A stretch of DNA of 64,000 nucleotides from Candidatus Omnitrophota bacterium (GTDB lineage Bacteria; Omnitrophota; Gorgyraeia; Tantalellales; Tantalellaceae): NCBI GenBank assembly GCA_015231405.1, contig JADGBR010000006.1, positions 40,218 through 104,217 on the forward strand. The letters run 5' to 3'. A program made the position numbers and the translations under genes. Positions within the stretch are counted from its first letter, which is position 1. Each line of letters begins with the position of its first letter. The notes below the pieces were generated by a model. The model saw nothing but the letters and a program-made list of their open reading frames with translations. It searched no databases and was not told where the DNA came from. Shown here one piece after another: positions 22,326 through 45,200 of this stretch.

Positions 22326-22326
22326 T

Positions 22327-25300: not shown

Positions 25301-25545
25301 GAACGTATGGCCCTGATGCCGCTGGCCGTTCCTACAGCCTCTTCGATGGGTTTCGTGAGAAGGGTCTCCACTTCCTGGGGAGCGGCATTCGCATACCCGG
25401 TAAAAATGGTCAACTGTGGGTATTTGATCTCGGGGAAAAGCTCCATCGGCATCTTAAGCAGCGAAATAATGCCGAAAAGACCCAGCCCGAGATAGATCAT
25501 CACGGTGGTAACAGGCCGGTTTATCGAGAACGACGCTAAAGTCAT
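22327..25545 (-). CDS. RND-family efflux transporter (second pump, in tandem)
   Basis: The ORF runs to 25611; the likely start is MTLASFSINRPV at 25545. Its stop is 2 bp from the start of the downstream RND gene. Confidence 0.9.
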   Translation of the reverse strand: MTLASFSINRPVTTVMIYLGLGLFGIISLLKMPMELFPEIKYPQLTIFTGYANAAPQEVETLLTKPIEEAVGTASGIRAIRSISKEGVSLVFAEFDWDQNMDFASLRVREKVDLVKAGLPRDATEPLVVMFNPFDMPIMRLSVTGNRDLLDLRRIAKDRIKDELEKVEGVASASVEGGLEREILVDIDQGKLSNYNVPILTISDAITNSNLNYPAGTIKESFYEYMIRTLGEFEKMDELKDVVIASNADEQGEGQQENYGISLKKLEISKVVNVVLLKDVAEVKDTFKEKSSFSRYNRKENISISIQKQSQANTIQVVEKVRKAIVAMKDKVPKDIQINVTLDQSVFIKDAIRSVTDAAWQGAVLAFITLYIFLKNMKTAFIVTVNIPITVVIVFIFMYFPGISINIMSMGGLALGVGMMLDNAVVIIENIFRHKEMGSEMSVAAEKGTDEVVNAVIASTLTSVSVFLPMVFVIGIAGQLFKQISFTITFCQIISLVVAIMTIPLMSLKMGLGKGGVKSADLFTGGKGWMKLVKLYEGALRAFMKVKGLGLLGMLALFLGSLMLWGSLDKELMPKADQGEFMVKVDLPVGTIVEETNRTVERVEDTISRIVPEAATINTIVGAEKGESTKDIIKSIGSNQAQIMVALKDNKKRTTSEIVDILVPVLKGKAFRGATIEVLIQQGIMSGAFGGSAKPIAVEIKGEDLEVIGKIAKRVREKLEGIKGIFGIEDDFPDPIPEVRIIIDKDKAALYNLSVVDLARMAQTVIRGYIPSQFKEKGKEIDIRVVLKKKDRDQYSKIQRLIVNSPVAGPVPLSKVVKFEQGMGPSEIRRISQEKTITVSANVSQRKISDVNTEIEAALKNVEVEKNYRVRMGGESEEMKKSFASLVFAITLSILLVYMVMAAQFESITQPFIILFTVPLSIIGVILALYFTKTSVNVISLLGVVILGGIVVNNGIVLIDFTNLLVKEKGLSRHDAIIEAGLTRLRPIMMTAFSTVLGLFPMILASGRGAELQRPMAISVAGGMAVSTSLTLFVIPAIYVIEGEIQEKWRVSLAKVKSAVVSFRARKNKPVK

Positions 25546-25744
25546 GTTATCCTTTAGAATCCAGAATTCAGAATCCAGAATCCAGAATTCGTCATACCAG
25601 AACGGAAGCATATCATCAATTGCTTCATGGTATCTCTTCCAAATATCACATTAACGATCCATATTTTAAGCATTAAATACCTTTCACGCTCCGTCTTCCG
25701 TGATTCTGGCTTTGGGATCTTATCTTCATTATCCCTAACCAACA

Positions 25745-27163
25745 CTAAAAGAGCGTTTCCTGAACTTCAGTTATTTCAACCTTATCCCCGCTCTTGAATT
25801 CCTGGTGAAGTTCGCGGACAATGAGCTCGCCTTCTTCAAGCCCTTTAGCGACTTCAGCCATATCATGAGTAAGGTACTCTATCTCTATTTTCTTTTCCTC
25901 GATCACACCGCTCTCTGTCTCGGCTTCTCCTGCTCCGGGAGCACCCATATCGGATATTTCACCTGAAATGTCCTCGCCCCCCGCAGGCTCCGCTCCAGGA
26001 ACGGACGAAGCGCCCGGAGTACCGGATTTTTCACCGGCGCTGTCCAGACTTCCTCCGGCCGCCTCTTTAGGCGCCTTACTCTGTTCTTTTCCGATCCCGT
26101 TCTCTTTACCCTTTTCGCCTTCTTCTTCCGGATTTTCAGAGACAGCGCCTTCTTCCCCGTCTTCCTCAACTTTCTCCTCTTTTTTAACCACGTAGATGAA
26201 GTACTCCTGTTCTTTCTTTTTGAACGCGGAAGCCGGTATCATCATAGCGTCCTTTTTCTCATAAATATTTATAACGGCTCTCGCGAACATACCGGGCCTC
26301 AACATGTCGTCCTTGTTATCGATCTCCACTTTTATCTTCTGTGTGCGGGTACGGCCTTCTATCATCGGAGCGATCATATCCACCGTCCCCGTGAATGTCT
26401 CACCTGGGTAAGCGTCAAGGTATATCTCCATCGTCTGGCCTAGCTTCAGCTTCGGGGAATCCTCTTCGATGACCTCGAACACGGAATAAACCTTGCTATA
26501 ATCAAGAAATGTACCGATCTTGTCCTGACTCGTCACATAAGCCCCCGCGAATTTATCCTTGCTGCCCAGGTATCCGTCTCCGGGAGCGTAAATATTGGTC
26601 TTTTCGAGGTCTCTTTTCGCCGATTCGTATTCCAGTTTTTTCTGCTCGTAAGGAAGTTTGTCAGTGGCTCCCAGTTCATAAAGCTTTTTGTTCTTTTCAA
26701 GGTCCAGTGCGGCATACTTCAATTTCAATAAAGAGTCACGCTGGTTCAAGCTCGCGATTATATCGCCCTCCAGTATCCTTTCCCCTTCCTCAAAGTTAAA
26801 ACTCTCCAGCATCCCGTTCTCCTCGAATTTGAGCTCAATTTCCTTCGCCCCCTGTATCCTTCCCATTACCGGCAGAGTGTCTTTGAAATCCATCCTTTTC
26901 ACCTTATAGACCTTCACCGGGATCGTTTCCAGAAATTCGACCTTCTCCTTCTCATCCTCTTTCTTCCCGAAGATAATGGACTTGATCTGCTCCGAAGATC
27001 TTGCCAGAATAAGCCCTAGCACCAGAACACCGAGAGCTATCCAGAGGTAGTTTTTCTTGATTTTTTTGGGATCGACCTTCATCTTGACAAGAAGTTTACC
27101 GAACGGCGCGAAAATATTAAGCCTCTTCAATAACGATACTTTAACTTTCTTTTCGTTTTCCAT
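25745..27163 (-). CDS. Periplasmic adaptor / membrane fusion protein (HlyD family) with a long acidic, Gly-rich C-terminal tail
   Basis: N-terminal TM helix, a biotinyl/lipoyl-like hairpin and a beta-barrel region. A low-complexity tail of about 130 aa follows (EEDGEEGAVSENPEEEGEKGKENG…). Confidence 0.8.
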   Translation of the reverse strand: MENEKKVKVSLLKRLNIFAPFGKLLVKMKVDPKKIKKNYLWIALGVLVLGLILARSSEQIKSIIFGKKEDEKEKVEFLETIPVKVYKVKRMDFKDTLPVMGRIQGAKEIELKFEENGMLESFNFEEGERILEGDIIASLNQRDSLLKLKYAALDLEKNKKLYELGATDKLPYEQKKLEYESAKRDLEKTNIYAPGDGYLGSKDKFAGAYVTSQDKIGTFLDYSKVYSVFEVIEEDSPKLKLGQTMEIYLDAYPGETFTGTVDMIAPMIEGRTRTQKIKVEIDNKDDMLRPGMFARAVINIYEKKDAMMIPASAFKKKEQEYFIYVVKKEEKVEEDGEEGAVSENPEEEGEKGKENGIGKEQSKAPKEAAGGSLDSAGEKSGTPGASSVPGAEPAGGEDISGEISDMGAPGAGEAETESGVIEEKKIEIEYLTHDMAEVAKGLEEGELIVRELHQEFKSGDKVEITEVQETLF

Positions 27164-27188
27164 TTATGCCCTCCATATGGACCAGAGC

Positions 27189-29885
27189 TCATTTGTTGTC
27201 GTTTTTCTCTTGTCCCTTCTCACCGGCGTCGGGTTTAACCCCGAGCTTTTTCCACTCATCATATTCTTCGTTCTCATATTCCGGCCTGAAGAATTCGGGT
27301 ATCCCTATAGCCTTGTTAAGCCCTACTATTGAAAGATAATATTCCGTATAGGACTGCACTACTCCATATACCATATCCCTCAGTTTCGTGAGCTCATCAA
27401 TGATCCCGGGTATATCGACCTCGCCGTAAAGCCTCTTTTGTTCGGCTATCTCAGTCTGCCTTTTCTGCTGCTCAAGCTGGACCAGGGACATGTCCATCTG
27501 GATAAGCGATTTCCTGTACTTGAAATAAGTTTCCTTTACCGCGATCATAACGTCCTGTTTGGCTTTCTCGTACTCGTACTTCGCCCTGTCGAACCCTACG
27601 AGCGTTTCCTCAATCTCGGAGAAGTACGTAAGGTTATCCAGGACTTTCATTGAAAAATAATTCGTCGCCGTCTCGGACCCCCTGAACGCCGATACCGTGG
27701 GAGACCATTTCTCCTTAACGTAGTTATGTTCGAGGGTGTTGCCCCAGAAAGGTATGTCTGTTTTAACTCCGACATACCATTCCGATTCAAGATCACGTTT
27801 GGACCTTTCCTTGAACCCGGTGGCGTCTTCGGCCTCATAATCCGCCTCCCTGTCCAGGGGCTGGTAATTCTCGTAAGCCAGGCCGAAATTACCATTGAAC
27901 TCTACTTTAGGCCAGGCTTTCGCTTTTACCATTTTACGGTCGAAATTATAATAATCCAGAACGGTCAGCTTCATCCTTATGTCAGGGGAGTTGGCCAGCG
28001 CTAACTGGTAACAGTTGGCGATCCCAATGGAAAGCAGTTTACCCGGAGGGCTGACCGGTTTTATCCCGAAGTTGTCGTCCGGATCCATCGACATAGCCTG
28101 AAGGAGGATCAATCTCGCCAGGGACACGTCCTCCTCCGATGACATATTCTCGAAATCCACCTGCATGTTGGAGGCCTTGACCTTAAGCAAAACGACCGGA
28201 GTAATGACATCGGCCTCCTGGAGCTTAACGGTTATTTCATAGAAGCGGTTGACTTGCTTCTGGAGTTCTTCCTGTTGGGCGAGGGCTTTTATCGCTTTAT
28301 CGAGGTTGTAATATCCCTTTTTTACCTCCTCGATGAGTTCTCCCTTTATCTTGAGGCATTCGAGCCTTACATTCTCTACGTTCGCCTCGGACTGTCTAAG
28401 AGCCCAGTATTTCTCGAAACCATCGAAAACATTCTGCTTAATCTCCATCTGGTATTTTTTGCCCTGATAATGCCTGGGGCTCATCGTCCCGTAACTTATT
28501 TCGTGTTTAAGGGTCAGCTCCGGGAGTATCTCCCTCCTGGATTGCTCCACCCGTTTCTCCGCTAGGTTCACCTGCCTTTCGGCGACCCTTAATCGCGGGG
28601 TGCGCGCGAGCGCTATCTGAACACATTCGTCTATGGAATATGTCCGGCCTTTCCTTACGTCTTCTTCGCCAAGCTCATATTTCGGGACCTTTAAAGGCTC
28701 TGTCAGTCTCTCATACCATGGTTTGGGAGGAGCGTTGTCCTTGACGGCGTCGCGGAGCAAGGCTTTATCCGACTCCGTCATCTCTTTCCTATTTGACGCC
28801 TCAAGGCGTTGACGGTTATAGTAGATCTCGTCCTTATCTATCTCGTCCAGAAGGTCCATGAGCTCCTTACTGTCCGGGTCCATCTTAAAAGCTTCCCGGA
28901 CGCAAGCCCTGGCTTCAGGGTATGATCTCTCATTCTTATAAACTTTTGCCTGCATGACAAGCTCTTTGAACATGTCGTATCCGGGATCCTCTATTGTAGC
29001 CGGCTTGACCACCTTCCTCTCCGGAACGGGCTCATCCTCCCGAGCCGTTTTATCAGAGCCGGTCACTTCTTGGGACACGCCCGGGGTCTGCTTAACTTCA
29101 CCCGTATCCTTCGAGCCGCTGAAAAGGCCTTTTATTTTTGAAAATACCGGAAATTTACCGTTATTTGGCTCGGCTTGTTTTCGGGGTTTTGCCGCCGCTT
29201 CCCGTTCAGCGCTTTTCGTTTGTACCTCCGGCTGGACTTTCGCGGCTTCTTTGGCTTGCTCTTTATTTTTTTCTTTTGTTCTTTTAACTTTCCCGGTCTT
29301 CTTCCCATCTATGGTCAGTTCTTTATGTTCCGTTATTTTGACTCCCTGGCCGTCTTCCACTCCAACGGCAGTATCAAGAAGTTTTTTTGCCGTCGAGTTC
29401 CCCGGATCGATCGAAAGGATCTCCTTCGCGGCCGCTTTCGCTTCGCCGGACTCCCCGTTCTCAAGAGCTTTCTTGGCTTTATCCAACAGCTGCACCACCC
29501 TCATTTTTTGTTGTGTCGCTCTTGGGATCTCACCGCCGGTACCGTTCTCATTCTCTTCAATATAGGCTTTTCCCTCCCCAGGAGACTCTCCGGCGGCTAC
29601 ATAAAGAAGTTTCCTGGCGTGGATATTTCCCGGATCGATATCCAGTATCGCCCGGGCGGCTTTTCCCGCGCCCTCAAGGTCCTCTCTCCCAAGCGACTCT
29701 TTCGCTTCATCAAGAAGACGGACGACATCTAGCTTCTGTTTTGTCCCCGGGACCATAGTCCCTCCGGCCGCTTTACCCTGAGCGGCCCCGGCCGAAACAG
29801 CGTGAAAAAAAACAGATAATATTACCGGCAGGAAAACAGATAATATCTTCCGAAAACCAATATTACGGACAAACCTCAATTCCAC
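27189..29885 (-). CDS. Outer-membrane efflux protein (TolC-like OMF) with an N-terminal extension of about 350 aa containing duplicated segments
   Basis: C-terminal OEP repeats (…CYQLALANSPDIRM…). The N-terminal region has duplicated modules (ILDIDPGNIHARKLL / ILSIDPGNSTAKKLL) and K/E-rich low complexity. Confidence 0.8.
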   Translation of the reverse strand: MELRFVRNIGFRKILSVFLPVILSVFFHAVSAGAAQGKAAGGTMVPGTKQKLDVVRLLDEAKESLGREDLEGAGKAARAILDIDPGNIHARKLLYVAAGESPGEGKAYIEENENGTGGEIPRATQQKMRVVQLLDKAKKALENGESGEAKAAAKEILSIDPGNSTAKKLLDTAVGVEDGQGVKITEHKELTIDGKKTGKVKRTKEKNKEQAKEAAKVQPEVQTKSAEREAAAKPRKQAEPNNGKFPVFSKIKGLFSGSKDTGEVKQTPGVSQEVTGSDKTAREDEPVPERKVVKPATIEDPGYDMFKELVMQAKVYKNERSYPEARACVREAFKMDPDSKELMDLLDEIDKDEIYYNRQRLEASNRKEMTESDKALLRDAVKDNAPPKPWYERLTEPLKVPKYELGEEDVRKGRTYSIDECVQIALARTPRLRVAERQVNLAEKRVEQSRREILPELTLKHEISYGTMSPRHYQGKKYQMEIKQNVFDGFEKYWALRQSEANVENVRLECLKIKGELIEEVKKGYYNLDKAIKALAQQEELQKQVNRFYEITVKLQEADVITPVVLLKVKASNMQVDFENMSSEEDVSLARLILLQAMSMDPDDNFGIKPVSPPGKLLSIGIANCYQLALANSPDIRMKLTVLDYYNFDRKMVKAKAWPKVEFNGNFGLAYENYQPLDREADYEAEDATGFKERSKRDLESEWYVGVKTDIPFWGNTLEHNYVKEKWSPTVSAFRGSETATNYFSMKVLDNLTYFSEIEETLVGFDRAKYEYEKAKQDVMIAVKETYFKYRKSLIQMDMSLVQLEQQKRQTEIAEQKRLYGEVDIPGIIDELTKLRDMVYGVVQSYTEYYLSIVGLNKAIGIPEFFRPEYENEEYDEWKKLGVKPDAGEKGQEKNDNK

Positions 29886-29961: not shown

Positions 29962-30348
29962 TTACCCGTTCTGCTCAGCTCCTGGCTGGTCAATCACGCC
30001 GCCTTCCTGTTTCTTCTTTTGCCTGTACTGGCGCATGTAATCCCTCATATACTCCCGGTGCCTTTCCTTATTCGCTTCGCGGTAAAGCTGCAAATATTCT
30101 TTATGCTTTTTCCTCCATTCCAGCGACCTTTCCCTGCAGGTCTGCTTCCAGGATTTATCCTGGGATTCTTTGTACTTGAAGTAGTTCGGGTTGCTCTTCC
30201 TCCACTCCTTCATGTTCGACAGCTGCCTCTGGTACTGGCATTCGAGGCTTGAACAAACCGTCTGATTAGGCCGATATTTGTTCGGAACAAAAGGCTTACC
30301 GCAATTCTTGCAGCTCTTCTCTTTCCTTCTTATCTCATCCACAATCAC
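29962..30348 (-). CDS. Cys-rich small protein (putative zinc ribbon), hypothetical
   Basis: CKNCGKPF…CSSLEC pattern. It overlaps the ROK gene stop by 4 bp. Confidence 0.45.
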   Translation of the reverse strand: MIVDEIRRKEKSCKNCGKPFVPNKYRPNQTVCSSLECQYQRQLSNMKEWRKSNPNYFKYKESQDKSWKQTCRERSLEWRKKHKEYLQLYREANKERHREYMRDYMRQYRQKKKQEGGVIDQPGAEQNG

Positions 30349-31472
30349 ACCTCCATGAACATCTCGCGTCTACATAAAACGGCGGCCCCTACCGAAGCCG
30401 CCTCCTTGCCCAGAACACCCGGGACAATCCTTATTCTCTCGGAAATATCCTTTGAAACAAATCTTTTCAGGCTTTCCCTCATGCAGTCGATAAAGCCGCC
30501 TTCGACACGTTCGATCCCTCCGCCCAGGAGGACGCATTCGATACCGAACATATTAATGAGATATGCCACCCTTACCCCGAGCGCGGACGCGGACCTTTTG
30601 ACCAGGTCCACCGCCAGCTCATCCCCTTTTTCGGACGCCCGGAGAACTACATCCATGTTTATCCTGTCGATATCCCCTTTTACCATCTCGACTATCTCCG
30701 TGCCGACACCCCTTGAAACAAGGTCCTTCGTCGTAGCGACCATGCTGAACTGGTTCCAGGGTCTCAAATAGGCTCCCTGCCTCCCTTCGTTATATTCGTC
30801 AGCCTCGAATATAGATTCTTTTTTAAAAATTACGCCTATCCCTATGTCCGAATACATAAAGAGAACGCTGTCCTCCGATGCATTCGGGTTATATTCCCTG
30901 TCACCGTAACCGGAGGCCGTGGCGGATTTAGTATGAAATACCCTGGAAGAAAATATCCCGCTCACGCCCGAAGCCAGGACATCAACAGCCTTTTCGCTGA
31001 TAGCTAGGATGTCTTCCGGTACGGCGAGTCCAACGAATTCGAATTTTTCGGATTTGAACCTGGTTTTAAACGAGATCTCCTCCACTATCCCCGAAATATC
31101 TTTATTTTTCTTGTTCTTTTTGGTCAACAGATCTATATGCAGTTTTTCTTGAGCGATAATTTTTCCCCTCGTATCTATGGATGCCAGATACGCCGTCTCT
31201 TCGCGGCAACCGATACCAAGTATTTTATCTCCCGTATCCTTGACGCTCAACTTGCCTGAATTTGGTGCGCCTTCCAGAATTTCCTTTTTTACAAAAAAAT
31301 CAAGATAGTTAGAAATAAAATCAACTGAAAGTTTAGTGCTGTTAATGATCTCATCGACCGAAAACGCTTTCTTCTTTTTGATAAAATGAAATATCTCCAA
31401 AGCCATTTGCTCTTTTTCTGTTTCAGGCTGTATGCTGAAAGCTGCTGTATTGCTTTTAAAATTTTTAACCAT
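30345..31472 (-). CDS. ROK-family protein (N-terminal wHTH plus sugar-kinase fold); regulator or kinase
   Basis: C-terminal GVLGKEAASVGAAVL and a ROK glycine-rich region (LLGGGIERVEGGF). Confidence 0.65.
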   Translation of the reverse strand: MVKNFKSNTAAFSIQPETEKEQMALEIFHFIKKKKAFSVDEIINSTKLSVDFISNYLDFFVKKEILEGAPNSGKLSVKDTGDKILGIGCREETAYLASIDTRGKIIAQEKLHIDLLTKKNKKNKDISGIVEEISFKTRFKSEKFEFVGLAVPEDILAISEKAVDVLASGVSGIFSSRVFHTKSATASGYGDREYNPNASEDSVLFMYSDIGIGVIFKKESIFEADEYNEGRQGAYLRPWNQFSMVATTKDLVSRGVGTEIVEMVKGDIDRINMDVVLRASEKGDELAVDLVKRSASALGVRVAYLINMFGIECVLLGGGIERVEGGFIDCMRESLKRFVSKDISERIRIVPGVLGKEAASVGAAVLCRREMFMEV

Positions 31473-32248: not shown

Positions 32249-35200
32249 TTAATTCGTCCTCAGATCCCTGGACCCGTCTGTCTGCACGGCGTAAGTGAAA
32301 GTCATCGTAACCATATCGTCGTCATTCATTCCGTCCTGATCGGCATTGACCGTGTCTATCCTCATTTTCGCGTAATAACCTTCCTGCGTTACTAAAAGAT
32401 AAACTTTGCCCGCGGTAGCCGGGCCATTGACTTCGTTCGTTATGTCCGGAGCGGTGGAGAGGCTGTCAAAAGTATAAGTCCCGGAAACATCCTGAATTTT
32501 AGCGTTTCCATATGTGAACAAGAGGTTCGGAAATTCGAGAACAAAATCTCCTACCGCGTCAGCCTGCGCCCCCGATGAAAAGAAAAACCCTCTGTCCATG
32601 TTGGAGGCCATCGGAAGGTCTACCGACGTTACCGTTCCTGTCCTTACGCTAAGTACCGAAGACACTCCTCCGGTTTCCTGTGTAGCGCCAGATCCGGGCT
32701 GCTCAGGGTTCCTCGTATCCCTGTCAACCCTGATAGCCTCGACGACGGCCTCGCCGAGTCCGCTGGACGAGGCTATTTCAGGAGAAAGCGTCGCGTATAT
32801 GAGATTGCCCTTAAGATTGTAGATCTTCATTTTACCGTCTTCCAGTAAAAATATCATTCGGGTCGAACCGCTTGTCCTCTGCTGCTGGCCAGTTTTCTTC
32901 GGTGTCTGGGTTTTCTGCCACCGTGTTTCGGCAATAAATAACGCGTTGTTCTTCTCTATACGGTCGATGAATATCGTAAGCCTTATATCGTCGAACATAT
33001 CAAAATCGAACCTGATCCCTTCTTCCAGAAATATCTTATTCCCCAGAAAATCCCTCGATATCAGAGAAGACACATTCGCGATATTTTTAGACTCGTAAGA
33101 ATCGGCTAATTCCTTAACGGCGTCCCTGATCAGCACGGTATGATCTATATCCCGGTAAACGAGCGTCTGTCCGTTCGAAAGGAGATCGAATACTTTTTCA
33201 TCGGACTCGAACTTAAGTTTGATCCGCGGAATGTACTGTTTTCCAGGGACAGGATGGAACGAATACCGGATTTGCCTGTCTACGGGTATTTCTTTAAATA
33301 CCGATCCGTCTTCCGATATAAGGACTGTCTTTATACCGTAAAGGTTATCGAGCCACGCGGTGATCTCTATAGTATTGTCGCGAAGTTCGCTCGAGGTAAG
33401 CACCATTTCGCCGGGAACATTGGGTATCGTGAGCGTGTTCACTCTCACGTCATACACCCTGTACCCGGACTTTTCAGCGTCTTCCTTCTCCCTTTTCTTC
33501 CTTTCTTCTTCCTCTTTCCTCTTTTCCTCATCGCGTTTAGCCGCGTATTCCGCGTCCATCCTGGCCTCATATATCTTCATCGACGCCTCTATAGCTTTAT
33601 TCGTCTCCGCGGAAAAGATCTTGTATATGGCCGGGGTCTTCCCTCCGTCAGGGGAGGCGTAGGCCTTAAGCCATTGGTCTAATATGGGCCGGTCGGCTTC
33701 TGCGTTGAGCGTGGAAGCGATAACGGCCCTTTTACCCATGGCTGTGACGTAATCGGAAGACGCGAACTCGTTACGGACTTTCAAGTTGATCTCGTCTATC
33801 TTAGGGAGAAAAGATATAAAGTCGTTGATCTCGTTCGCCACGCCGAAACTCGCGTTAGCTATCTCGGCGCATTTATTAAAAATATCCTCTCTTACCCTGG
33901 GATTCCCGTTCATGTCGACATCCCACAGGTCCTCGCCGTATTTATTCTCAGGGTTTATGACGCCTTGTTCGGGGTAGCCTTCAGCGATTACCCTCACCAG
34001 ACCGAGATCCGGATCGGAGTTAACTTTTTCCTCGAACTGCCAGCGGGTATTGAGAGCGAGCGCCGCGAGATGCCCCGCGCGCGAGGCGGGTTCACCCAAT
34101 ACCGCGAATTTCTTCCTTTCTTCTTCAAGAAAAGCTTTAACCTTAGCCCCATCGGCTCCGGAATCGAACATCTCGGCCACTTGCTTGCGTAGCTTAGCGA
34201 GATGCCGGTATGCGGAGGCGCTGTCTTCGAACCCGGCGGCTTTGGCCTCAACTATGACCGCCTTACCCTTATTTACGGCGAATATGGCCGCGTTCACCAC
34301 ATCGGCCGCGCCGGTAGAATATCTTTGAACGAATCCCCTGGCTTTTGATACCTTATTATCGAACTCAGAGCGCATAGCGGTGATATTCTTTTTATACACA
34401 TCATTCTCTTCCGGGATCCTCGCGATGATTTTATTTAAAGATATCGATTGAGATGAGGCTGAGGCGGTAAGATACTCCACATTGTAAGAGCCAGGGCTCA
34501 CTCCCAACCCCGCCAAAGCGTTCATAACAGGGGTCGCCTCCCCTTTAAGAGAAGAAACAAAATTGTCATATTCCACCGGATATCTCCGGATTACAGGAAG
34601 CAGATCGTCGTTAACCTTAATGATGACCCCGTAAAAATTCATTTCCTGAGTAAGCTCCTGGGGGCCCATGCCTCTTATGACCTGAGGAGCTAAAAGCTCA
34701 GGCAAGGCGTAGCTCGAGCTTTTTCCCTCAAGAGGATTATGGTTCCCACCCTTGAAGGAAGCCTTAGCTTCCTTGTTAAGTTCCGCGCCTATCTCCTCGA
34801 ACTTCTTTCGCCCGGCGGCTTCTATATTGTAGAGCGCTGTTTGATATGAAGCTATGAGCGCCTGCCGCTCCGCCTCATCTTTGACATGTGCCGGCGCAGG
34901 CGTAATATTAATTTTCCCTTTTTCTTTCCCGGCTGAATTGATCTCACCGTCTTTCTTTGCCGCCATCTCAATTTCAGCGGCTGATAACCTTTTCTTGAGC
35001 TCTTCCAGGCGTTTCCCCAGCCTATCGTCCTCTTCCGCTACACGGGGACGCTCGCTATCGATATCGGCTTTTGTCCTATCCAGATTTTTTCTGAGCTCGT
35101 ATATCTTTTTTTTGGCGTTCTCAATGGCTTCTAGGACATAATAGAACTTCCTATAAATAAGGCCCGTCTCTCCGAGATCGTCCGGGTTCTCCCCTTCTCT

Positions 35201-35799: not shown

Positions 35800-38700
35800 C
35801 TAAAAATTCCTCGACCCGTCGCGCTGGTACTTGTACCTGACTACCGTCGTGAACGGAAAGGCGGCCGCCGTCATGCTCGTTATCGATATGATCGCGTACT
35901 TCCCGTCGGGAAGCTGGAGCGCGTAAGTATGTCCCGTCGCCGCGTCAAGCCATCCTCCGGCATCATATCCTGAAGACGGCGCTTCGGTGACGCTGTCAAT
36001 AGATACCCCGCCGAGATCCACGATCCCTCCTGACGGATTTACCTTAATAAAAACGTCCTCTCTCCTGAAATCCGAGCTAAAAGCGAAAATATCCCTGGTT
36101 ACAGCGCTACACGCGAAAGTGTAGCCGTCGCAATCATGGAAACCGTATTGCGTAAGCGTTACCGACCCTGACTCCGACCTGGCACTCGTTCCGTCCGCGG
36201 TTTCGGTATCCGTATCGCCCTCAGTTGTCCCCGCTCCGGGCTGGACCGGGTCACGGTCGTCCCTGGCTGCCCTGACCTCATCGATGACCGTAACTCCTAA
36301 CCCGCTCGATTCGGCTATCTCCGGGGAAAGCGTCGCGTATATCAGGTTCCCTTTAAGGTTCTTTAGCTTCATCTTCCCGTCCTCGAACGCGAATATCATA
36401 GAAGTGTTCCCGGAAGTTTTCTGCTCCTGGCCGGTCTTTCTCGGACTTTGCGTTTTGTTCCATTTCGTATCTGCTATGAAATATGCCCCGCCCTTCTCTA
36501 TCCTGTTAATAAAAATGGCAAGCCTTATGCTGGAGAACATATCAAAATCAAACCTCACGCCTTCCTCAAGAAAAGTCCTGTTCCCGAGAAAATCATCGGA
36601 AACATATTCGCTGAAAGCCGATACGTTCTGCTGTTCGTATGCGTTGGCTATCGCCATGATAGAGTCCTGGACCAGCTTTACAAAATCAATATCCTTATAC
36701 GTAATGCTTTGGACATACGGGAAAAGCTCCTGGGTCACTTCTCCGGCTTCACCCATATCTATCCTTAAGATAAAGGTGTACTCGGCGTCAGGCGTCGGGG
36801 CAAAAGAATATTTCACATCTGCGCTATTCTGGATCTTCGTCCAGCTCCTGCCGCCATCCACTGAGATCTCGACGCCCCGTGATCCCGCGACTGTAGAAAG
36901 CTTCCCGGCGACCTCTATCTTACCGTTCTTGAGGTCCATTTTAGAAAGAACCACTGTTTGAGGCATGCTAGCCGCGTTGTATTTGTTAAGCGTCGCGCTC
37001 AGGACTTGTATGGCCTGCCGGCCGGCTTCATCCTCCGCTTCCTTCTTCTTTCTCTCCTCCTCTTCCTTCTTTTTCCTCGCCGCTTCTTCTTCCGCGGCTT
37101 GACGTTCCCGTTCCCATCGTTTTTCTTCATCTATTTTGTCCTGGCCGGACTTTTTGAGCTCATCCTCCACCTCTTTCTCCAGGGCCATCCATCCGCCTAA
37201 GGATTTCTCAATTGCGTCTGTCTTCGCGAACATGGAATATAGCCGGACGAAATGTGAAACATTCTCCTTCTGGAATTTCTCGAGCTGCTTGATCTTTTCC
37301 TGGACATTGTAGCTGTTCTTCTTAATATCGTCGAATTTCTGCTTCGCCTCGCCAAGATATTTATCGGCCAGTGCCGCCCTCTCGTCAAAAGTCTTTTTGA
37401 CAGTTTCGTAGGTCTCCTGGTACACCTTTATCCTGTCGGGTATGGTCAACCATTTATCAAGCGGAGGGTAGTAGGACTGGGCGAAATCGAATCTATACCT
37501 GATATTTGTCCCTATGCCTTTACGCAGGTTGTCCAGCTTAGAGACGAGATCGCTGTATTTCGCCCAGGCCTCTTTCATCTGTTCCAGGTACGCATACCCT
37601 CGCATCTTTTCGGGCAGGGTGTACATAAAAGCTGAGTTATCCGGCATAATGTACATATCGCTCTGCCTTCTTATTTCCTGTTCAAGCGTAAGATCAGAAA
37701 GGCGCAGCATGAACATATCCAGGGTGATATCGTAGTATATCCTGGCATACGCCGAGGCCACCTGGTCCGCGTGCTCTATCGTAAAAAGATCGCTTTCTCT
37801 CTTTGCAACGGCTGCTATGGCCTTATCCATTTCCTCGAGTATATCCTTTCTCTCCATCACCTTCGCCTGCGCCTCGGCGTCGTTATCTCCTCCCCACACC
37901 CTCGGGATACCCACGCTTTCGGCAGGAAGTATCTCCCCTCCCAGTTGCGCGTTATAGAACTGGCTTGTGGAAACGATATTTTCAAATCCCCACGACTGTT
38001 TACCGTCATATGGGATGAGCAGTCTTTTCGGCATTGAGCTCTCAAAACTTTTCGCGATGCTGATAGCGGACGCCGCGTATTGTTCGAATGCTTTTTTTTC
38101 TTTCGCGTAGAGTTCGGCCGCGGCTGACCTGTCTCCGGAAAGGTCCACTTTCATCTGTTGCACCTCTACAAGCTCCCGTGACGCGTCGCCGGGCATCTCG
38201 TATACGAGACCTTCCCGAGCGGCCATGTTCTCGGATATGATGGTGTAGAAATAGGCGGATCCCCATCCATCGGGAAAATTCAATTTGGTAAGGGCCTCCT
38301 GGGATGTCTCGCTGCCGGCTTTCCGATAGGCTTCCACGGCTTTATCGAGCTCTTCCCTGATCTTTTCGGCCTTTTCCCTCATATAAGCCCTCATCTTACT
38401 TCCCCGCTCGAGAGCTTCCGCGACAATGACCTGCTCTTCGGCGCATAGCACCTTGTAATCATTATAGAACTGCCCCTCGACTATACTGCCCCAGGCCCGA
38501 TTCATATAAGGCCCGCGCGCCGCATTGTACACATCGGATAACGCGTTACTCTGGGCGACAAGCGCGTCGTGTTCCGCTCTATTCCTGGCATTTTGGATCC
38601 TTGCCCAGATCGCGGCGAACTGAGGGTCATATTGTGCGGCGAGGGCCGCTAGGATCTCATTCGCCTTCCGTTTGCCGTCATCCATTTTCTTACTGGCCGC

Positions 38701-39966
38701 TTGAAGCGCCGCCTTCCTTTTCGACACGTAATCTTCATACATCCGTTCGATCGCCGCCGTATCATACCCCTCGATCCCGGATTCCTTGATCTCGGTGAAA
38801 GCCGTTTCTAAAGCGCTTAAAATTGAGCCATGATCGAACCCTTCATAAGGGAAAGACTGGACATATTTAGCCATCCTGCCGTTGTATTTATCTTCGTCCG
38901 ATTCCTCCGTCCGGACAAATGTCTCGGCATCCTGTTTTTTGGCGCCATTAATAAGGATATCAAATTCATCTATCATTTTTAGAGCCGGATCAGCTTCCTT
39001 CCTGGCCGCGTCGACGGCCGCGGTGACTCCGGCGGAAGCGCCCCTGGTTTCCTGCACAAGAGCGTCCAGTTTCGACCTCAATTCGTTCTCGATCTGTTTT
39101 TTCTCGAGGATATCGGCCTTCATGCGTGAAAGTTCGGCGATAATGGCGTTTTTCATATTGTCGCCTTCGTTATTTTTACCCTTCAAGTACCACCCGCCGT
39201 AAGCAAGCTGCTCGTCCCATTCCCGCTGAACGTAAGAGGCGATGTCAACGGTCTGGATCCATTCGACAAAGCCTCGGGGATTTTGTTGCGGGTCATGCCC
39301 CGCCAGAACGACCTTCATCTTTCCCTCGAGCGCGGAACTGAAGGCGTACTGAACGACATATTTGCCCAAAGCCTCTACCATCGACTGGGCCAGTTTATAC
39401 CATCCCCAGCCCGGCACGAAATATGTTATTATCTTTTCTCCCACATCCTTACCGAGAGATCTTAAGGCTTCTTCCGGACCGTCCTTTTTCCAGCTGGAAA
39501 TAAAATTATACGTCATCTGGACGCCCTCAAGACCGGCCTTAAAAGCGTTTACCTGGGTATCCAATTTTGCGTTAATATCGATATCGGCTGCCGACCACAA
39601 AGCCCCGACGTTCTTCCCTTCTATGATGGCTTTATGCATCATATCCGGGATCTGAGCCTTAAAAAGTTCCTCACGCAATTTTTTCTTTACATATTCCTCG
39701 AGCTTCTCCTTGGCCGCCTCTTTCAGCCGGTCGGAACTCTCTTCCCAGACTCGCTCTTTCCCTTTTTTGAGGATATAGGCGACTTTGGCTTTGTCGGTGG
39801 GGAGGCTGTTAAGTTCCGCGACGTCGTCGACAAAGTTAGTGAATTGTTTGATAAGTTCTTTAGATACCTTTTCCGTAGCCTCGTCCTCTGAGAAAGCCGG
39901 AGGGCACGCCGAAGTTATCGTGAAACAGAGAATGGTTATTGAGGCAAGTATCTTTTTTATGTTCAT
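35800..39966 (-). CDS. Giant secreted paralog B (1388 aa), same architecture
   Basis: Signal peptide MNIKKILASITILCFTITSA. KE-rich coiled coil (…EEEAARKKKEEEERKKKEAEDEA…). Conserved C-terminal module (…VSDDFLGNRTFLEEGVRFDFDMFSSIRLAIFINRIE…KLKNLKGNLIYATLSPEIAESSGL…). Confidence 0.7.
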   Translation of the reverse strand: MNIKKILASITILCFTITSACPPAFSEDEATEKVSKELIKQFTNFVDDVAELNSLPTDKAKVAYILKKGKERVWEESSDRLKEAAKEKLEEYVKKKLREELFKAQIPDMMHKAIIEGKNVGALWSAADIDINAKLDTQVNAFKAGLEGVQMTYNFISSWKKDGPEEALRSLGKDVGEKIITYFVPGWGWYKLAQSMVEALGKYVVQYAFSSALEGKMKVVLAGHDPQQNPRGFVEWIQTVDIASYVQREWDEQLAYGGWYLKGKNNEGDNMKNAIIAELSRMKADILEKKQIENELRSKLDALVQETRGASAGVTAAVDAARKEADPALKMIDEFDILINGAKKQDAETFVRTEESDEDKYNGRMAKYVQSFPYEGFDHGSILSALETAFTEIKESGIEGYDTAAIERMYEDYVSKRKAALQAASKKMDDGKRKANEILAALAAQYDPQFAAIWARIQNARNRAEHDALVAQSNALSDVYNAARGPYMNRAWGSIVEGQFYNDYKVLCAEEQVIVAEALERGSKMRAYMREKAEKIREELDKAVEAYRKAGSETSQEALTKLNFPDGWGSAYFYTIISENMAAREGLVYEMPGDASRELVEVQQMKVDLSGDRSAAAELYAKEKKAFEQYAASAISIAKSFESSMPKRLLIPYDGKQSWGFENIVSTSQFYNAQLGGEILPAESVGIPRVWGGDNDAEAQAKVMERKDILEEMDKAIAAVAKRESDLFTIEHADQVASAYARIYYDITLDMFMLRLSDLTLEQEIRRQSDMYIMPDNSAFMYTLPEKMRGYAYLEQMKEAWAKYSDLVSKLDNLRKGIGTNIRYRFDFAQSYYPPLDKWLTIPDRIKVYQETYETVKKTFDERAALADKYLGEAKQKFDDIKKNSYNVQEKIKQLEKFQKENVSHFVRLYSMFAKTDAIEKSLGGWMALEKEVEDELKKSGQDKIDEEKRWERERQAAEEEAARKKKEEEERKKKEAEDEAGRQAIQVLSATLNKYNAASMPQTVVLSKMDLKNGKIEVAGKLSTVAGSRGVEISVDGGRSWTKIQNSADVKYSFAPTPDAEYTFILRIDMGEAGEVTQELFPYVQSITYKDIDFVKLVQDSIMAIANAYEQQNVSAFSEYVSDDFLGNRTFLEEGVRFDFDMFSSIRLAIFINRIEKGGAYFIADTKWNKTQSPRKTGQEQKTSGNTSMIFAFEDGKMKLKNLKGNLIYATLSPEIAESSGLGVTVIDEVRAARDDRDPVQPGAGTTEGDTDTETADGTSARSESGSVTLTQYGFHDCDGYTFACSAVTRDIFAFSSDFRREDVFIKVNPSGGIVDLGGVSIDSVTEAPSSGYDAGGWLDAATGHTYALQLPDGKYAIISITSMTAAAFPFTTVVRYKYQRDGSRNF

Positions 39967-39994: not shown

Positions 39995-40510
39995 TCAAAA
40001 GGGGGAATTCCCTTTCACATCGTACAGCTTCCATTCCTCTCCCGACTTTTTAAACACGAAAAGACATTGCCCCCGGCTCTTACGCTGGCTTCCGGTGTCG
40101 AACGGCACGTCCTTCTTGTTCCAACTGAAAGAAACGGCGAGTTTGTCTCCTTTCGGAATAACCGTATTTATGAAATACTCTATGTCCAGGGGTCTTGCCG
40201 AATAAAATGAGTTCTCGACGCCGCTCACAAAAGACTGGCCGCCAGAGGGAAAATCATCGTCCACAATATCGGCGAAAGATCCCCTCGTGTACCCACGGTA
40301 AGAGTCGAAGATACGGGATAGAAGACTATCGGCTATCTCCCTTTCTTTTCCGGGAGCTATAACTTTCTGGGCTCTTCCCCTTTCGACCGTCGTTCCGGCC
40401 ATAGCCCACGCGTAAGATGTCAACGCCGTCAAAACCAGTAGCGACGCGAATACCCGGCAAAAACGATCAGAAATTCGAAACGAGCTTGGTGATAAACCTT
40501 GTTTCATCAT
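39995..40510 (-). CDS. Small secreted protein (171 aa) consisting of a stand-alone copy of the paralogs' conserved NTF2-like domain
   Basis: Signal peptide. The segment …DDDFPSGGQSFVSGVENSFYSARPLDIEYFINTVIPKGDKLAVSFSWNKK…GQCLFVFKKSGEEWKLYDVKGN aligns by pattern with RDFLGNKIFLEEGIRFDFDMF…IAETRWQKTQ…TRMIFLLEDGKMKIYNLKGN in the giant paralogs. Confidence 0.55.
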   Translation of the reverse strand: MMKQGLSPSSFRISDRFCRVFASLLVLTALTSYAWAMAGTTVERGRAQKVIAPGKEREIADSLLSRIFDSYRGYTRGSFADIVDDDFPSGGQSFVSGVENSFYSARPLDIEYFINTVIPKGDKLAVSFSWNKKDVPFDTGSQRKSRGQCLFVFKKSGEEWKLYDVKGNSPF

Positions 40511-42233
40511 AAGACTGCTCCTTGTCCTGCTGATTATAGTCGTTATGTTCCCCTCGAAAGACCAGACGCGTGCTCCTTTTCTTCTCCATGAGAAAATTCA
40601 TTTCGAAAAATGTCGTGTAATTAAAATAGTTCTGCATGGGCTGGTTGGAATCGCTGGAGTTCACGTTATAACCAAAATATAGCATATGGGCGCCATAGAT
40701 GTTGTACTGGCCCTGGAACCCTACCCCGGTGTTAAAATCCTCCTTAGGGTACTTTTTGGGGTCGTGATAATCCAGGTTCAAATACCCCGAAAGATACGCT
40801 CGGCGCTTCAATATGTACTGTTCCCGCCCGAGATTCGTGCCGAGGCGGTAAAAGTAGTCGGAGTTAGATTTGACATATTTGTCGATGAAACCCCTAAATT
40901 CGCCGAAAATCCCGTAGCTTGTCTTATCGTCCAGATTATCGTTGACCGCAACGCCAGGCGTGTAAGTGACCGCGCGCAAGGTGTTAAAAACGTCGTCAGA
41001 CCTTCGTTCCTGCACGTTCGTGTAAGCCCTGACGCTGAACGAAGGATCGCTTTCGTACGGACGCATATTGAGCGTCATGTATTTTTCGTCGTATATGGTG
41101 CGTTTTTTCAATGTGCTTCCGGTAAGATGGTTCCAGTAATAATTCTCTGTGACGGTCGCCCTCATCTTTTTAGTGATATCATAATCAAGAGTTCCCTGGT
41201 GCTGCATTTTATCGGGCATAGCTGAACCCGCGTCGGTATAAAATTTAGGCTGAACGTAGTAGAAAAGATAAGTGCCGGTAAAGGGTCCGTATTTCAAACG
41301 GGGCCTGGCCCTGAACGCGTTGCCGTGCTTGTCGTCCGAATACGCCGCTTTTCTTTCGTCAAGGTTGTGATAACTCGTACCCAACTCATAGATCAGTGAG
41401 AAGTACTCTTTCGTGGCTATCTCGCCGTCCACGCTGACCACCGTATTGCTCATGTCCGGGATAGGCGTCCCGAGCCCTGTGGAATCGCTGGTAGCTCTGT
41501 CGTCACGGTTTGTAACGGCCTGGGTCCCTATCCTGAAAGTTTTGAACGCTTCCTCTCCTTCCTCCTTAAAAAGAAAGATATCGGTCTTCCCTCCGTACAC
41601 ATTTCTCCAGAATGCGCTCATATCGTTATCAGGGCTCTGACTGCGCGCGGCGACCCCTTGCAAATGCACGCTGTCGTATTCTTTTATCTCAGCGTTGAAC
41701 CCTTCGAGTGAGTTACCCAGAGTGAACTGGCTGAAGTCCCCGTAGAAATCTCCGAAGAGGAGCATATTGTCGGGGTTGGATATCTGGGTAGTAAGCTGTT
41801 TGACCCGGAGGTCCTTCCTCCTTTCGATACGACGGTCATCGGTCCTCCGGAGGAACAGCTGGCTTTCAAAACTGTAGTCTGAGATCAATTTTTCATAGCT
41901 ATTGATATTGACCTCGGTATTCTGATAAACTCCCCTTCTGAGAAATGTTTTCGTTCCGTTGCCTCCGGTAGCGTTAAAATTTATCTCTTCCATAACGCTC
42001 CCGGTTATCATTCCGGAACGGTCAGGGCCATAGTTGCCGTAATTTTTAAAATCGAGAAGATCATCCACCCTATCCTCAAGGGTGAAGGTCTTATTTACAT
42101 CAGGTGCTCCTCCGGCTGTAGAACCCTGTCCGAGATAATAAACCTCCGCCGCTTCAAGTGTTAACGGCCGGCAGAAAATAACTATTCCCGCCAGAACGAA
42201 CGACACAGCTACATCTCTCGACCTTTTTCCCAT
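40467..42233 (-). CDS. Outer-membrane beta-barrel protein (porin/transporter-like), hypothetical
   Basis: 588 aa. Signal peptide. Alternating aromatic/hydrophilic beta-strand pattern throughout. The C-terminus ends in the aromatic signature …KLVSNF. Confidence 0.6.
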   Translation of the reverse strand: MGKRSRDVAVSFVLAGIVIFCRPLTLEAAEVYYLGQGSTAGGAPDVNKTFTLEDRVDDLLDFKNYGNYGPDRSGMITGSVMEEINFNATGGNGTKTFLRRGVYQNTEVNINSYEKLISDYSFESQLFLRRTDDRRIERRKDLRVKQLTTQISNPDNMLLFGDFYGDFSQFTLGNSLEGFNAEIKEYDSVHLQGVAARSQSPDNDMSAFWRNVYGGKTDIFLFKEEGEEAFKTFRIGTQAVTNRDDRATSDSTGLGTPIPDMSNTVVSVDGEIATKEYFSLIYELGTSYHNLDERKAAYSDDKHGNAFRARPRLKYGPFTGTYLFYYVQPKFYTDAGSAMPDKMQHQGTLDYDITKKMRATVTENYYWNHLTGSTLKKRTIYDEKYMTLNMRPYESDPSFSVRAYTNVQERRSDDVFNTLRAVTYTPGVAVNDNLDDKTSYGIFGEFRGFIDKYVKSNSDYFYRLGTNLGREQYILKRRAYLSGYLNLDYHDPKKYPKEDFNTGVGFQGQYNIYGAHMLYFGYNVNSSDSNQPMQNYFNYTTFFEMNFLMEKKRSTRLVFRGEHNDYNQQDKEQSYDETRFITKLVSNF

Positions 42234-42282: not shown

Positions 42283-45200
42283 TTATTGCGTCCTAACGTT
42301 CCTCGTCCCATCGGTCTGGAGCGCGTACTGGAATTCCAGCGTATCAGGCGGACCGAGAGTCCGGTTGGTCACCGTCATCTTCCCGTATTTTGCATCTGCG
42401 GTCTTAAAAGCGTAAACTTTTCCCACATCCATATTGTCAACAAAAGGGGCGTATCCAGATGACGGGGCTTCATTGAGCGCCCCGAACGTGGAAGTTGTAA
42501 TTTCCTGTATCTCGGACGCGCCTACGGCGATAAATCGCATCCCCATAACATAATTGAAATCACCGGTATCCACGTCAGCCTGAGCCCCGGACGAGAAACT
42601 AAATCCCTTTACATTGCTAGGAGGGGGACCGGGTTCGGATGTGACAGACCCTGTCCGGACGGATATCACGGCGGTCGAAGTCGTCCCTCCGGCCTCAACG
42701 GTCTCGCTGGATCCGGGCTGTACGGGATCACGGGTTTCCTGAGCCTGCTCTATCTGCTCGACGACGGCTTGCGCCAACCCGCTGGATTCGGCTATTTCCG
42801 GGGAAAGAGTAGCGTATATTAGGTTCCCTTTAAGATTGTAGATCTTCATCCTTCCGTCCTCCAGAACAAAGATCATCTCAGTTTTTCCTGTCGTCCTTTG
42901 CTGTTCCCCGGTCTGTCTCGGTATCTGGGTCTTGTTCCACGTTGTCTCGGCAACGTATTGCCCGTTACGTATCTCTATCCTGTTGATGAATATGGTGAGC
43001 CTTATTTCAGTGAACATATCGAAGTCGAACCTCACTCCTTCTTCCAGAAAAGTCCGGTTGCCTATGAAATCCCTCGATATATTCTCTTCGAATAAAGAAA
43101 CGTTCTGGGCTTCATAGGCGTCGGCTATCTTCTTAGCGGCGTCGACGAGAAGCTGGCTATAGTCGATGTTCCTATATATCAACCCGTTGATGTTCTCGAA
43201 CGGCTCTAGAGTGACCTCATCGAAATCCACGGTCTTGATCTTGAAAACGACCTGATACAATTGCTCGACCGCCGGCATGAAGGAAAAGGATAACATCTGG
43301 TTCTTCTGGCATTCGTTCCATATCCGTCCGCCGTCGGTCGAAACGAGTATCTTATCTATCCTGTCCAGCGTGTTCAGCCTGGCTGTAACTTCGATAGCGT
43401 TATTCTTCAGGTCAGTATTCGTGAGGATAACGTCACCGGAAGCGTTTTTTAGGCTCACTGTATTTACGCGCGCGTCATAAAGCTGATAAAAAGAAAACCC
43501 TTCACCCTCCCCCACTGGAACGGTTTGAGAGAAAGACGCCGTTTTCTGTCCGGGCTGGCCTCCCTGTCCAGGCTGTCCCCCTTGCCCCGGCTGCCCGCCC
43601 TGCCCTGGCTGCCCACCCTGCCCTGGTTGTCCTCCCTGTCCTGGTTGTCCTCCCTGTCCTGGTTGTCCACCCTGTCCCGGTTGTCCACCCTGTCCCGGCT
43701 GGCCTCCCTGTCCAGGCTGGCCACCCTGCCCCGGTTGTCCGCCGGGCCCGCTTGTCTTAGTGGTTTTAAGAAACTCCGTGCGCTCTTCCAGGATCTTATC
43801 GAGTTCATTCATTATGGAGACATATCTTTTGCCCAGCGAATGATCGAAAGGAGCCGGGTTTTTCTCATAGGCTTTGTCCACGGCATATGGCTGGCTCGTA
43901 TCACCGCTTGAAATTATGGCACCGGCTATTGCCCCAATGACCGGCATCATCTGCTGCATGAACTCGATATCACTCGCGTCATATTTGACCTTCGGAACTT
44001 CCTCCTCGAACTTCGCGACCGTGCTAGCCTGGATCACGATCTCCGTATCGCCCGAAGGAGCGAAAAAATTGTCTTCCGCGGCGTATTCAACTCCGGGCAA
44101 GGTAAGGATCTTCTCGAGTACCTCGTTAACTCCGGAGGCGCTATTCTTAATGAACTTGTAGCCCGGATATTGCTGCCACATAGTTCTTATCTCGTTGGCG
44201 AAAGTCCCCGTATCGTTCTTAGTCATATAGTGTTTGTAGGGTTTATCCATCAGTATCAAATTGCCGTCTTTCTTGAAAAGGATCTCGTACTCCCCATAGC
44301 TGAACTCCCTAAGAACTCCTTTTTCCTTCTGGTCCCGGAAGAACTCCTCTACCGCCGCTTTTTTAGAGTTGATCCAGTCCGCCCCTTCCTGACGTTTCGC
44401 CATTTCCTCGTCGGCATATTTACGTATCTCGTCGAACCTGGCCTGTGACCTGTTGATGAGATCCTGAAGTTTCTCTATGGCATTGCCCAGGTCCGCCATC
44501 TCTTCCATTTGCCGGTCGAAATTTTCGGAAACACCGAGCACCTTCATTTCGGTGAGTTCACTGTCCGACGGTTTAGGTATATCCTTAAGTTCCGCCGCGG
44601 CTCTCTGCCAATCCGGGTAGGAACCCTGGACATTCGCCATTCGGTACCCACCTTCCCTGCCTATCTCCCCGGCGAAATCGAAGTTTACAGTAGCGGCCTT
44701 CTGGTTCATTTCAGAATATAGCTCGGGAACGCTTTTCGGGTCGTTAAAAGTACCTACTCCCCCATACTCGTAAGATTTCGTTTTTTCTACCGCCGCGTTA
44801 ATGGCGTTCATGTTATCCGAAAAATCTTCATCGGCCTGGGTCCTCGTCCCTGTCCCCAGGATACTATTGACGGGAATTATTTTGGCTGACGCCTGCACAA
44901 GCCCTGTATATTCATACCATTGCCTTTGCCTTACCCTCTTAAGGTCGTTAAAAGTATTGACGAGCCCTGATATCTCGGAATTGGTCTTAACGATCACGGC
45001 TTCGGTCGTATTCCTGAGCGTCTGGCTAACGTCCCCGGCCAGATAATATGCGCTCTGAAGAATGGATAACTCGCCGCCGAGGGCGCTAGTCTCCTTTCTT
45101 ATCGCTTCCATCCGCGTTGAGTTGCCGCTCATTGCCGAGACAAGGCTGCTCCTTAAGGCTTCGTCATAGGAATCGTAATACTGTCTCTGCAATTTCGCGT

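Follow-up and report, generated by a model that had tools for sequence, protein, structure and literature searches.

A stand-alone NTF2-like protein encoded beside a predicted outer-membrane barrel and large proteins with a related module in Omnitrophota

Why would a bacterium encode a free copy of a domain that is already built into the large proteins encoded next to it? The question is raised by a 64,000-nucleotide stretch of an Omnitrophota genome (this whole stretch is called the window), in which a small gene lies among the genes of three large proteins, G1, G2 and G3, and overlaps the gene of a putative beta-barrel. Omnitrophota are uncultured and mostly ultra-small, and are thought to be attached to other cells or to prey on them; their large surface proteins are suspected to be adhesins or attack factors, with a function that is not known (PMC10066038; bioRxiv 10.1101/2023.11.21.568195). 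The three-part cassette described here, of barrel, small protein and large proteins, provides a concrete hypothesis for how large proteins might reach the outer membrane and stay there. Table 1 gives the coordinates of the features, and homologous loci are numbered from L001.

Table 1. Features of the small gene and its neighbours in the window.
Feature	Position	Strand	Description	Basis
Small gene	39995..40510	minus	171 aa including signal peptide, ATG start; stop codon 39995-39997	ORF list
Shine-Dalgarno-like AAGGAG	40518..40523	minus	7 nt 5' of the small-gene ATG (40510)	From sequence
Predicted Sec signal peptide	40403..40510	minus	Small protein aa 1-36, cleavage after AWA	By-eye reading and homologues
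NTF2-like core	39998..40342	minus	Small protein aa 57-171, C-terminal ...KGNSPF	AlphaFold2, Foldseek, sub-threshold DUF4440
Predicted outer-membrane beta-barrel gene	40467..42233	minus	588 aa, about 26 strands, no internal plug domain; last 44 nt within the small gene	AlphaFold2 model
G1, 1508 aa	42283..46809	minus	NTF2 module aa 1212-1345 (42775..43176)	BLASTP, HMM
G2, 1388 aa	35800..39966	minus	28 nt after the small gene; NTF2 module aa 1090-1223 (36298..36699)	BLASTP
G3, 1162 aa	32249..35737	minus	NTF2 module aa 861-994 (32756..33157)	BLASTP
Shared C-terminal module of about 400 aa	32252..33463, 35803..37008, 42286..43485	minus	G3, G2 and G1
HmuY-like last 45 residues or so	32252..32404, 35803..35928, 42286..42417	minus	In each large protein	Profile match

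Start site, export and fold of the small protein

The length of the small protein has to be settled first, as the database offers another one. The closest entry, and the sole near-identical one in the word-index search, is HQL30_04475 from a Candidatus Omnitrophica MAG, for which NCBI places the start at M37; the resulting protein has 135 aa and its signal peptide is lost. We prefer the long ATG start. No ribosome-binding site comparable to AAGGAG is found in the sequence before M37, the N-terminal pattern MxKQG..S..R recurs in the small-protein orthologues of L002, L003 and L004, and hydrophobic N-termini or lipoboxes are seen in the homologues: among the 40 stand-alone entries in the best 150 of 732 matches (2 of the 40 being fragments), the N-terminus is hydrophobic in 33 and a lipobox is present in 14. 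The ATG of G2 is also preceded by AAGGAG, with a spacer of 6 nt.

Read by eye, the N-terminus of the window protein consists of the basic residues K3, R12, R16 and R19, the hydrophobic stretch VFASLLVLTALT, and then AWA followed by M. This is a signal of the signal-peptidase-I type with no lipobox, and the predicted signal peptide supports export via Sec into the periplasm; the initial annotation, which had called the protein secreted, is backed in this respect. When the small gene was compared with its 83%-identical orthologue in L001 (a JGI contig), dN/dS was 0.078 over 88 codons, so its frame is under strong purifying selection. The open reading frames antisense to it are incidental, and scanning the operon for promoters and terminators gave nothing above shuffled expectation.

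The core of the protein (aa 57-171) was modelled by AlphaFold2 from a six-sequence alignment with a pLDDT of 89.9 and a pTM of 0.82. The model has helices at residues 2-16, 20-26 and 35-46, and long strands at 53-64, 67-78, 87-100 and 103-111. In a Foldseek search of the PDB, the top matches were solely NTF2-like, with TM scores of 0.73-0.83 and probability 1.00; they comprise 3rob, 3hx8, 3soy, 3d9r, designed NTF2 proteins, the CaMKII hub domains and the NTF2 domain of Bd1075, and the structural neighbours also include ketosteroid-isomerase-like proteins and designed ligand binders. The sequence identity to these solved structures is 10-21%. On the model, we assign the small protein confidently to the NTF2-like superfamily at the level of the fold, with three helices packed against a curved sheet in an alpha+beta cone. 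An NTF2-like fold had been proposed from the letters alone; the structural comparison agrees with it and points to no unrelated fold.

At the level of sequence, the small protein passed the threshold of no curated family in Pfam or NCBIfam. Pfam DUF4440 (PF14534) matched aa 105-162 with 17.8 bits (E 0.0048), below the gathering threshold of 25.2; the same profile matched 5 of 38 family members at E <= 0.01 (best E 7e-6), and SnoaL_2 matched 2 of the 38. Sequence-profile searches of the PDB with the small family gave no significant match, with 3soy at E 0.15, and no solved structure related to the small protein by sequence was found. A match to the RecQ structure 3iuo in these searches is short and looks spurious. 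Across the alignment of the 38 homologues, just Y71, F79, G147, L162 and F171 are conserved at 90% or more, and these contain no Asp/His set. The protein thus has the alpha+beta cone in common with the NTF2 clan (DUF4440, SnoaL-like, ketosteroid-isomerase-like and CaMKII association domain families), but differs in that its family is exported, often lipidated to judge from the lipoboxes, ends in PF, and lies within a cassette of barrel and giant genes. No function is transferable to it from the known members.

The large proteins and the wider module family

The small protein was found by BLASTP to resemble one and the same module in each of the three giants, with E values of 8e-11 for G1, 2e-10 for G2 and 2e-7 for G3, and 22-29% identity over 104-117 aa. 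When the profile of the small protein and its orthologue was aligned with the profile of the giant modules by hhalign, the probability was 96.8% (E 2.9e-10, 104 columns), well above the 50% below which the initial annotation would have given up its claim that the core is homologous to a segment of the giants, and that claim holds. Identity is 35% within the small proteins and 44% within the giant modules, and it falls to 21% across the two; pairs from the same locus are 23.0% identical, compared with 20.7% for pairs from different loci. The small proteins and the giant modules are old, separate paralogue lineages with no convergence within a locus.

G1 and G2 can be aligned only over their last 400 residues or so (43% identity, E 7e-87), while their first 1000 or so residues give no alignment. 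Since the giants share only this C-terminal part, their NTF2 module is to be counted with a constant handle and not with the variable payload. In the handle, an Ig-like domain is followed by the NTF2 module, and a linker leads from there to an HmuY-like beta domain. For the last 45 or so residues of this beta domain, profile matches were obtained to 8b6a (E 4.2e-5), 3u22 (E 0.0019) and 6eu8 (E 0.0028), and the Pfam HmuY family matched the ends of the giants weakly (E 0.025-0.049); one such end reads VYLLVTQEGYYAKMRID...FTYAVQTDGSRDL. All three large proteins have signal peptides, and searches of Pfam and NCBIfam gave no toxin domain in any of them.

Two features are particular to single giants. 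In G1, the sequence GGQPGQ is repeated perfectly in tandem, in 11 copies (aa 1023-1088; 43546..43743, minus strand), just before the Ig-like domain, and these repeats account for the weak collagen-like and glutenin matches of this protein. In G2, the signal peptide (aa 1-22; 39900..39966, minus strand) ends in ...FTITSAC before PP, and that of the L001 orthologue in ...FSFTSAC before PR; TSAC may be a lipobox, in which case G2 would be lipidated at its N-terminus, unlike G1 and G3.

Word-index searches with the small protein or with a four-sequence profile returned only the protein itself, one fragment and one close orthologue, and a scan of a genome collection with a 10-sequence subset returned three genome loci and one metagenome locus. 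The word-index searches were too narrow, and the family became visible only when HMMER was run exhaustively against 1.84 billion representatives with a joint profile. This search gave 732 proteins at E <= 1e-3, of which 84 reached E <= 1e-30. The best 150 of the 732 comprise 68 large proteins of at least 700 aa with the module close to the C-terminus, the 40 stand-alone entries (38 of them full-length, about 110-180 aa), and 42 others below 700 aa, in which truncated giants are mixed with true mid-size proteins. The mid-size proteins combine an Ig-like domain and the C-terminal beta domain of the giants with one to three NTF2 modules. All named homologues except one are from Omnitrophota. Neither Pfam nor NCBIfam covers the families of the barrel, of the free NTF2 protein and of the handle, which are new.

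The stand-alone proteins end in a near-invariant G-x-x-P-F (39995..40012, minus strand, in the window copy), and 30 of the 40 stand-alone entries among these best 150 have P[F/L] at most three residues from the C-terminus. At the corresponding position, the giants and their mid-size relatives have P-x-x-F followed by the linker, and given this likeness the near-invariant ending may be purely structural. Among the mid-size proteins, P0102, P0104 and P0147 have a conserved WWIFG motif directly after the signal peptide or lipobox, and P0091, P0095 and P0126 carry two or three NTF2 modules in tandem.

The barrel gene and the conserved cassette

The gene that the small gene overlaps encodes a protein of 588 aa with no match in Pfam or NCBIfam. 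We collected 46 homologues of about 470-615 aa, most of them 550-615 aa, and all those carrying a source name are from Omnitrophica or Omnitrophota; the porin family BBP2_2 matched weakly in 3 of 36. AlphaFold2 with 36 sequences gave a pLDDT of 88.5 and placed 26 strand elements in the region of aa 74-587, which is preceded only by a short and poorly modelled N-terminal extension. The solved folds closest to this model all have 22-26 strands, and in each of them the lumen is filled by a protein domain. On the model, we are confident that the protein is a large outer-membrane barrel without a plug of its own. Right after its signal peptide, an AAEVYYLG that is nearly invariant in the barrel family (aa 28-35; approximately 42135..42150, minus strand) lies within aa 21-43, a segment with very low AlphaFold confidence, and the mature start of G3, AAEDAYYLQ, resembles it. 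The segment is possibly a partner-binding strand.

The order of barrel, small NTF2 gene and one or more large proteins is found in 12 of the 13 barrel loci with readable downstream sequence (the window, L002-L007, L009 and L012-L015), and the genes around the cassettes differ from locus to locus, so that the neighbourhoods are unrelated. Each cassette has one barrel, one small gene and one to three giants. Along the window operon, the genes follow one another as G1, barrel, small gene, G2 and G3, with gaps of 49, -44, 28 and 62 nt. The 44-nt overlap of barrel and small gene is common to the window, L002, L003 and L004; at distant loci the two genes abut or are separated by 12-30 nt. In L001, orthologues keep the order of small gene and G2. 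L004 is labelled Planctomycetia and the other named loci Omnitrophota. The initial annotation had suggested that the free copy has a cognate partner, and the conserved gene order supports this, but the tightest partner is the barrel, which it did not mention.

The sole cassette without a small gene is L008 (10001..16329), in which 279 nt separate the barrel from the large protein of 1440 aa that comes next; no open reading frame of at least 30 aa between the two matches the small-family profile. The small gene is therefore not strictly required. Variation was also seen elsewhere. The distant cassette L012 (6246..16519) has a barrel that matches the barrel profile with E 2.5e-21 and a small NTF2 protein ending in LFGININN. 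Next in this cassette are an Ig-NTF2 protein of 447 aa, a protein of 991 aa and, last, one of 5611 aa that carries haemolysin-type calcium-binding repeats. In L003 (14557..17730), from a Tibetan Omnitrophota MAG, the second large protein has a stop inside its NTF2 module, with HMM positions 5-93 before it and 95-135 in the next open reading frame; the stop marks either a pseudogene or an error in the assembly. Another contig of the MAG from which the window comes carries a second barrel paralogue (P0174, HQL30_08495) of 41% identity, which suggests that there may be more than one cassette per cell.

A trans partner of the barrel and the alternatives

To our knowledge, the known barrels of 22-26 strands (TonB-dependent transporters, ushers, LptD-LptE and MtrB-MtrA) have their lumen blocked, either by a domain in cis or by a protein in trans, and it is from this that we infer a role in trans for the small protein. 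Our preferred reading, to which we give a probability of about 0.4, is that it acts on the barrel in trans, as a plug or a dock, and either imitates the NTF2 domain of the cargo handle or forms a pair with it. The small protein would be exported by Sec into the periplasm and, as the gene overlap and the conserved order suggest, produced in step with the barrel encoded upstream, which it would then partner either as a plug in the lumen or as a dock at the periplasmic rim. Because the NTF2 domain also occurs in the handle of the giants, the free copy is proposed to be a placeholder or a pairing partner. It might keep the site on the barrel that the NTF2 domain of the cargo occupies later, or it might pair with that domain; NTF2 folds commonly pair. 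The barrel would be gated in this way, and the large proteins would be mounted on it by their C-terminal ends, the payload being their helical N-terminal regions, which are variable. The physical contact, the role of plug or dock, and the direction of export are all steps that we infer. Three observations accord with the model, and none of them proves it: the share of lipoboxes among the stand-alone entries is as expected for an accessory of an outer-membrane barrel, the ratio of one barrel and one small protein to one to three giants fits a plug or dock, and L008 fits a role that can be covered by the NTF2 domain of the giant itself. Against the model stand the signal of the window copy, which is not a lipobox, and the very absence of the small gene from L008.

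The strongest competitor of this reading is an escort or chaperone, soluble in the periplasm, which would bind the handle of the giants or the unfolded giants and deliver them to the barrel, and would not be a stable subunit. The conserved operon is equally compatible with the plug or dock and with such an escort. The small protein is exported, with a soluble-type signal peptide in the window copy, and it is homologous to a domain of the cargo, which recalls the chaperone-usher systems, where chaperone and subunits have a common fold. However, the coding overlap joins the small gene to the barrel gene and not to a giant, one in three of the stand-alone entries looks like a lipoprotein tethered to the membrane, and a single small gene would have to serve one to three giants with unrelated N-terminal parts. 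An escort is a serious contender that we nonetheless consider unlikely.

It is also conceivable that the small protein is an independent ligand-binding or enzymatic NTF2 protein, of the SnoaL, ketosteroid-isomerase or DUF4440 kind, which acts on a periplasmic ligand and is linked to the giants by evolution only. The weak DUF4440 and SnoaL_2 matches and the ketosteroid-isomerase-like proteins and ligand binders among the structural neighbours speak for it. On the other hand, the few conserved positions contain no acid/base set, the window protein itself stays under the Pfam threshold, and the strict order with barrel and giants would be left unexplained. We regard this possibility as improbable.

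The initial annotation had compared the small protein to the immunity protein of a polymorphic-toxin pair. It is true that a large secreted protein is encoded immediately downstream of the small gene and that some immunity proteins use NTF2-like folds. The architecture of the giants is, however, the reverse of that of polymorphic toxins, being constant at the C-terminus and variable over the N-terminal 1000 or so residues, and no toxin domain was detected. The small protein is homologous to the constant module and is not a binder of a variable one, it does not co-vary with the giants of its own locus, and its gene, which precedes G2, also follows and overlaps that of the barrel. A single small gene, moreover, accompanies one to three giants, and an antidote role is contradicted by the data and very improbable. 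Finally, a decayed C-terminal fragment of a giant or a chance open reading frame, to which the shorter NCBI start and the single near-identical entry might point, has a negligible chance and is ruled out by the conservation data, namely the low dN/dS, the ribosome-binding site and signal peptide of its own, the 38 full-length members of a distinct stand-alone family in the best 150 of 732 matches, and the position kept in 12 loci.

The plug or dock reading can be set beside several known systems. LptD-LptE consists of a 26-strand barrel with a lipoprotein plug in trans, and the modelled window barrel is likewise of about 26 strands and has no internal plug. Neither the barrel nor the small protein is related in sequence to LptD/OstA or LptE, as judged by Pfam and NCBIfam; moreover, the window partner has the NTF2 fold, and the neighbouring genes encode proteins that are not LPS transport components. 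When compared to the porin-cytochrome complex MtrB-MtrA-MtrC, the window has no haem-binding motifs or cytochromes and its components are unrelated. The chaperone-usher pathway (FimD/PapC with FimC/PapD) differs in that the window barrel lacks the plug, N-terminal and C-terminal domains of the usher, the small protein is NTF2-like and not Ig-like, and the cargo, unlike pilins, is 1100-1500 aa long with coiled-coil-like N-terminal regions. In curli, CsgB is a free paralogue at the outer membrane that nucleates or anchors the secreted major subunit, CsgA. The window resembles this, as an analogy only, in having a free small paralogue of a domain of a secreted protein, with its gene beside that of an outer-membrane channel; it has no amyloid repeats, and the folds and the channel are unrelated. 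Two-partner secretion (TpsB/TpsA) employs a 16-strand Omp85-type barrel with POTRA domains and a cargo that has a TPS domain at its N-terminus, whereas the window gave no POTRA, ShlB or TPS matches, and its barrel is predicted to have about 26 strands and no periplasmic domain of POTRA size.

The fold of the small protein is ordinary, while the cassette of barrel, NTF2 protein and large proteins in Omnitrophota appears to be undescribed; no paper in the library searched describes it. We rate it as a variation on the theme of a large outer-membrane barrel with a small accessory protein and cargo, and give a modest probability to its being a surface-display system in its own right. A bolder form of this idea, which we hold to be doubtful, is that barrel, free NTF2 protein and NTF2 handle make up an undescribed apparatus for display or secretion at the outer membrane, largely confined to Omnitrophota, in which plugs are swapped: the 26-strand barrel would hold either the small protein as a plug in trans or the homologous domain of a giant in cis, and interchangeable large proteins could be mounted on the cell surface in this manner.

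The genes beyond the cassette were also inspected. Downstream of it on the minus strand (18921..29885) lies an RND efflux set. Its TolC-like OEP protein has 898 aa, including a long TPR-like extension at the N-terminus, and is accompanied by a 472-aa adaptor of the HlyD family and by two pumps of the AcrB family, of 1094 and 1134 aa. The interval between cassette and efflux set (29962..31472, minus strand) contains a ROK-family protein of 375 aa with an N-terminal winged-helix match and a Cys-rich basic protein of 128 aa that belongs to no family, and a gap of 777 nt separates these two genes from G3.
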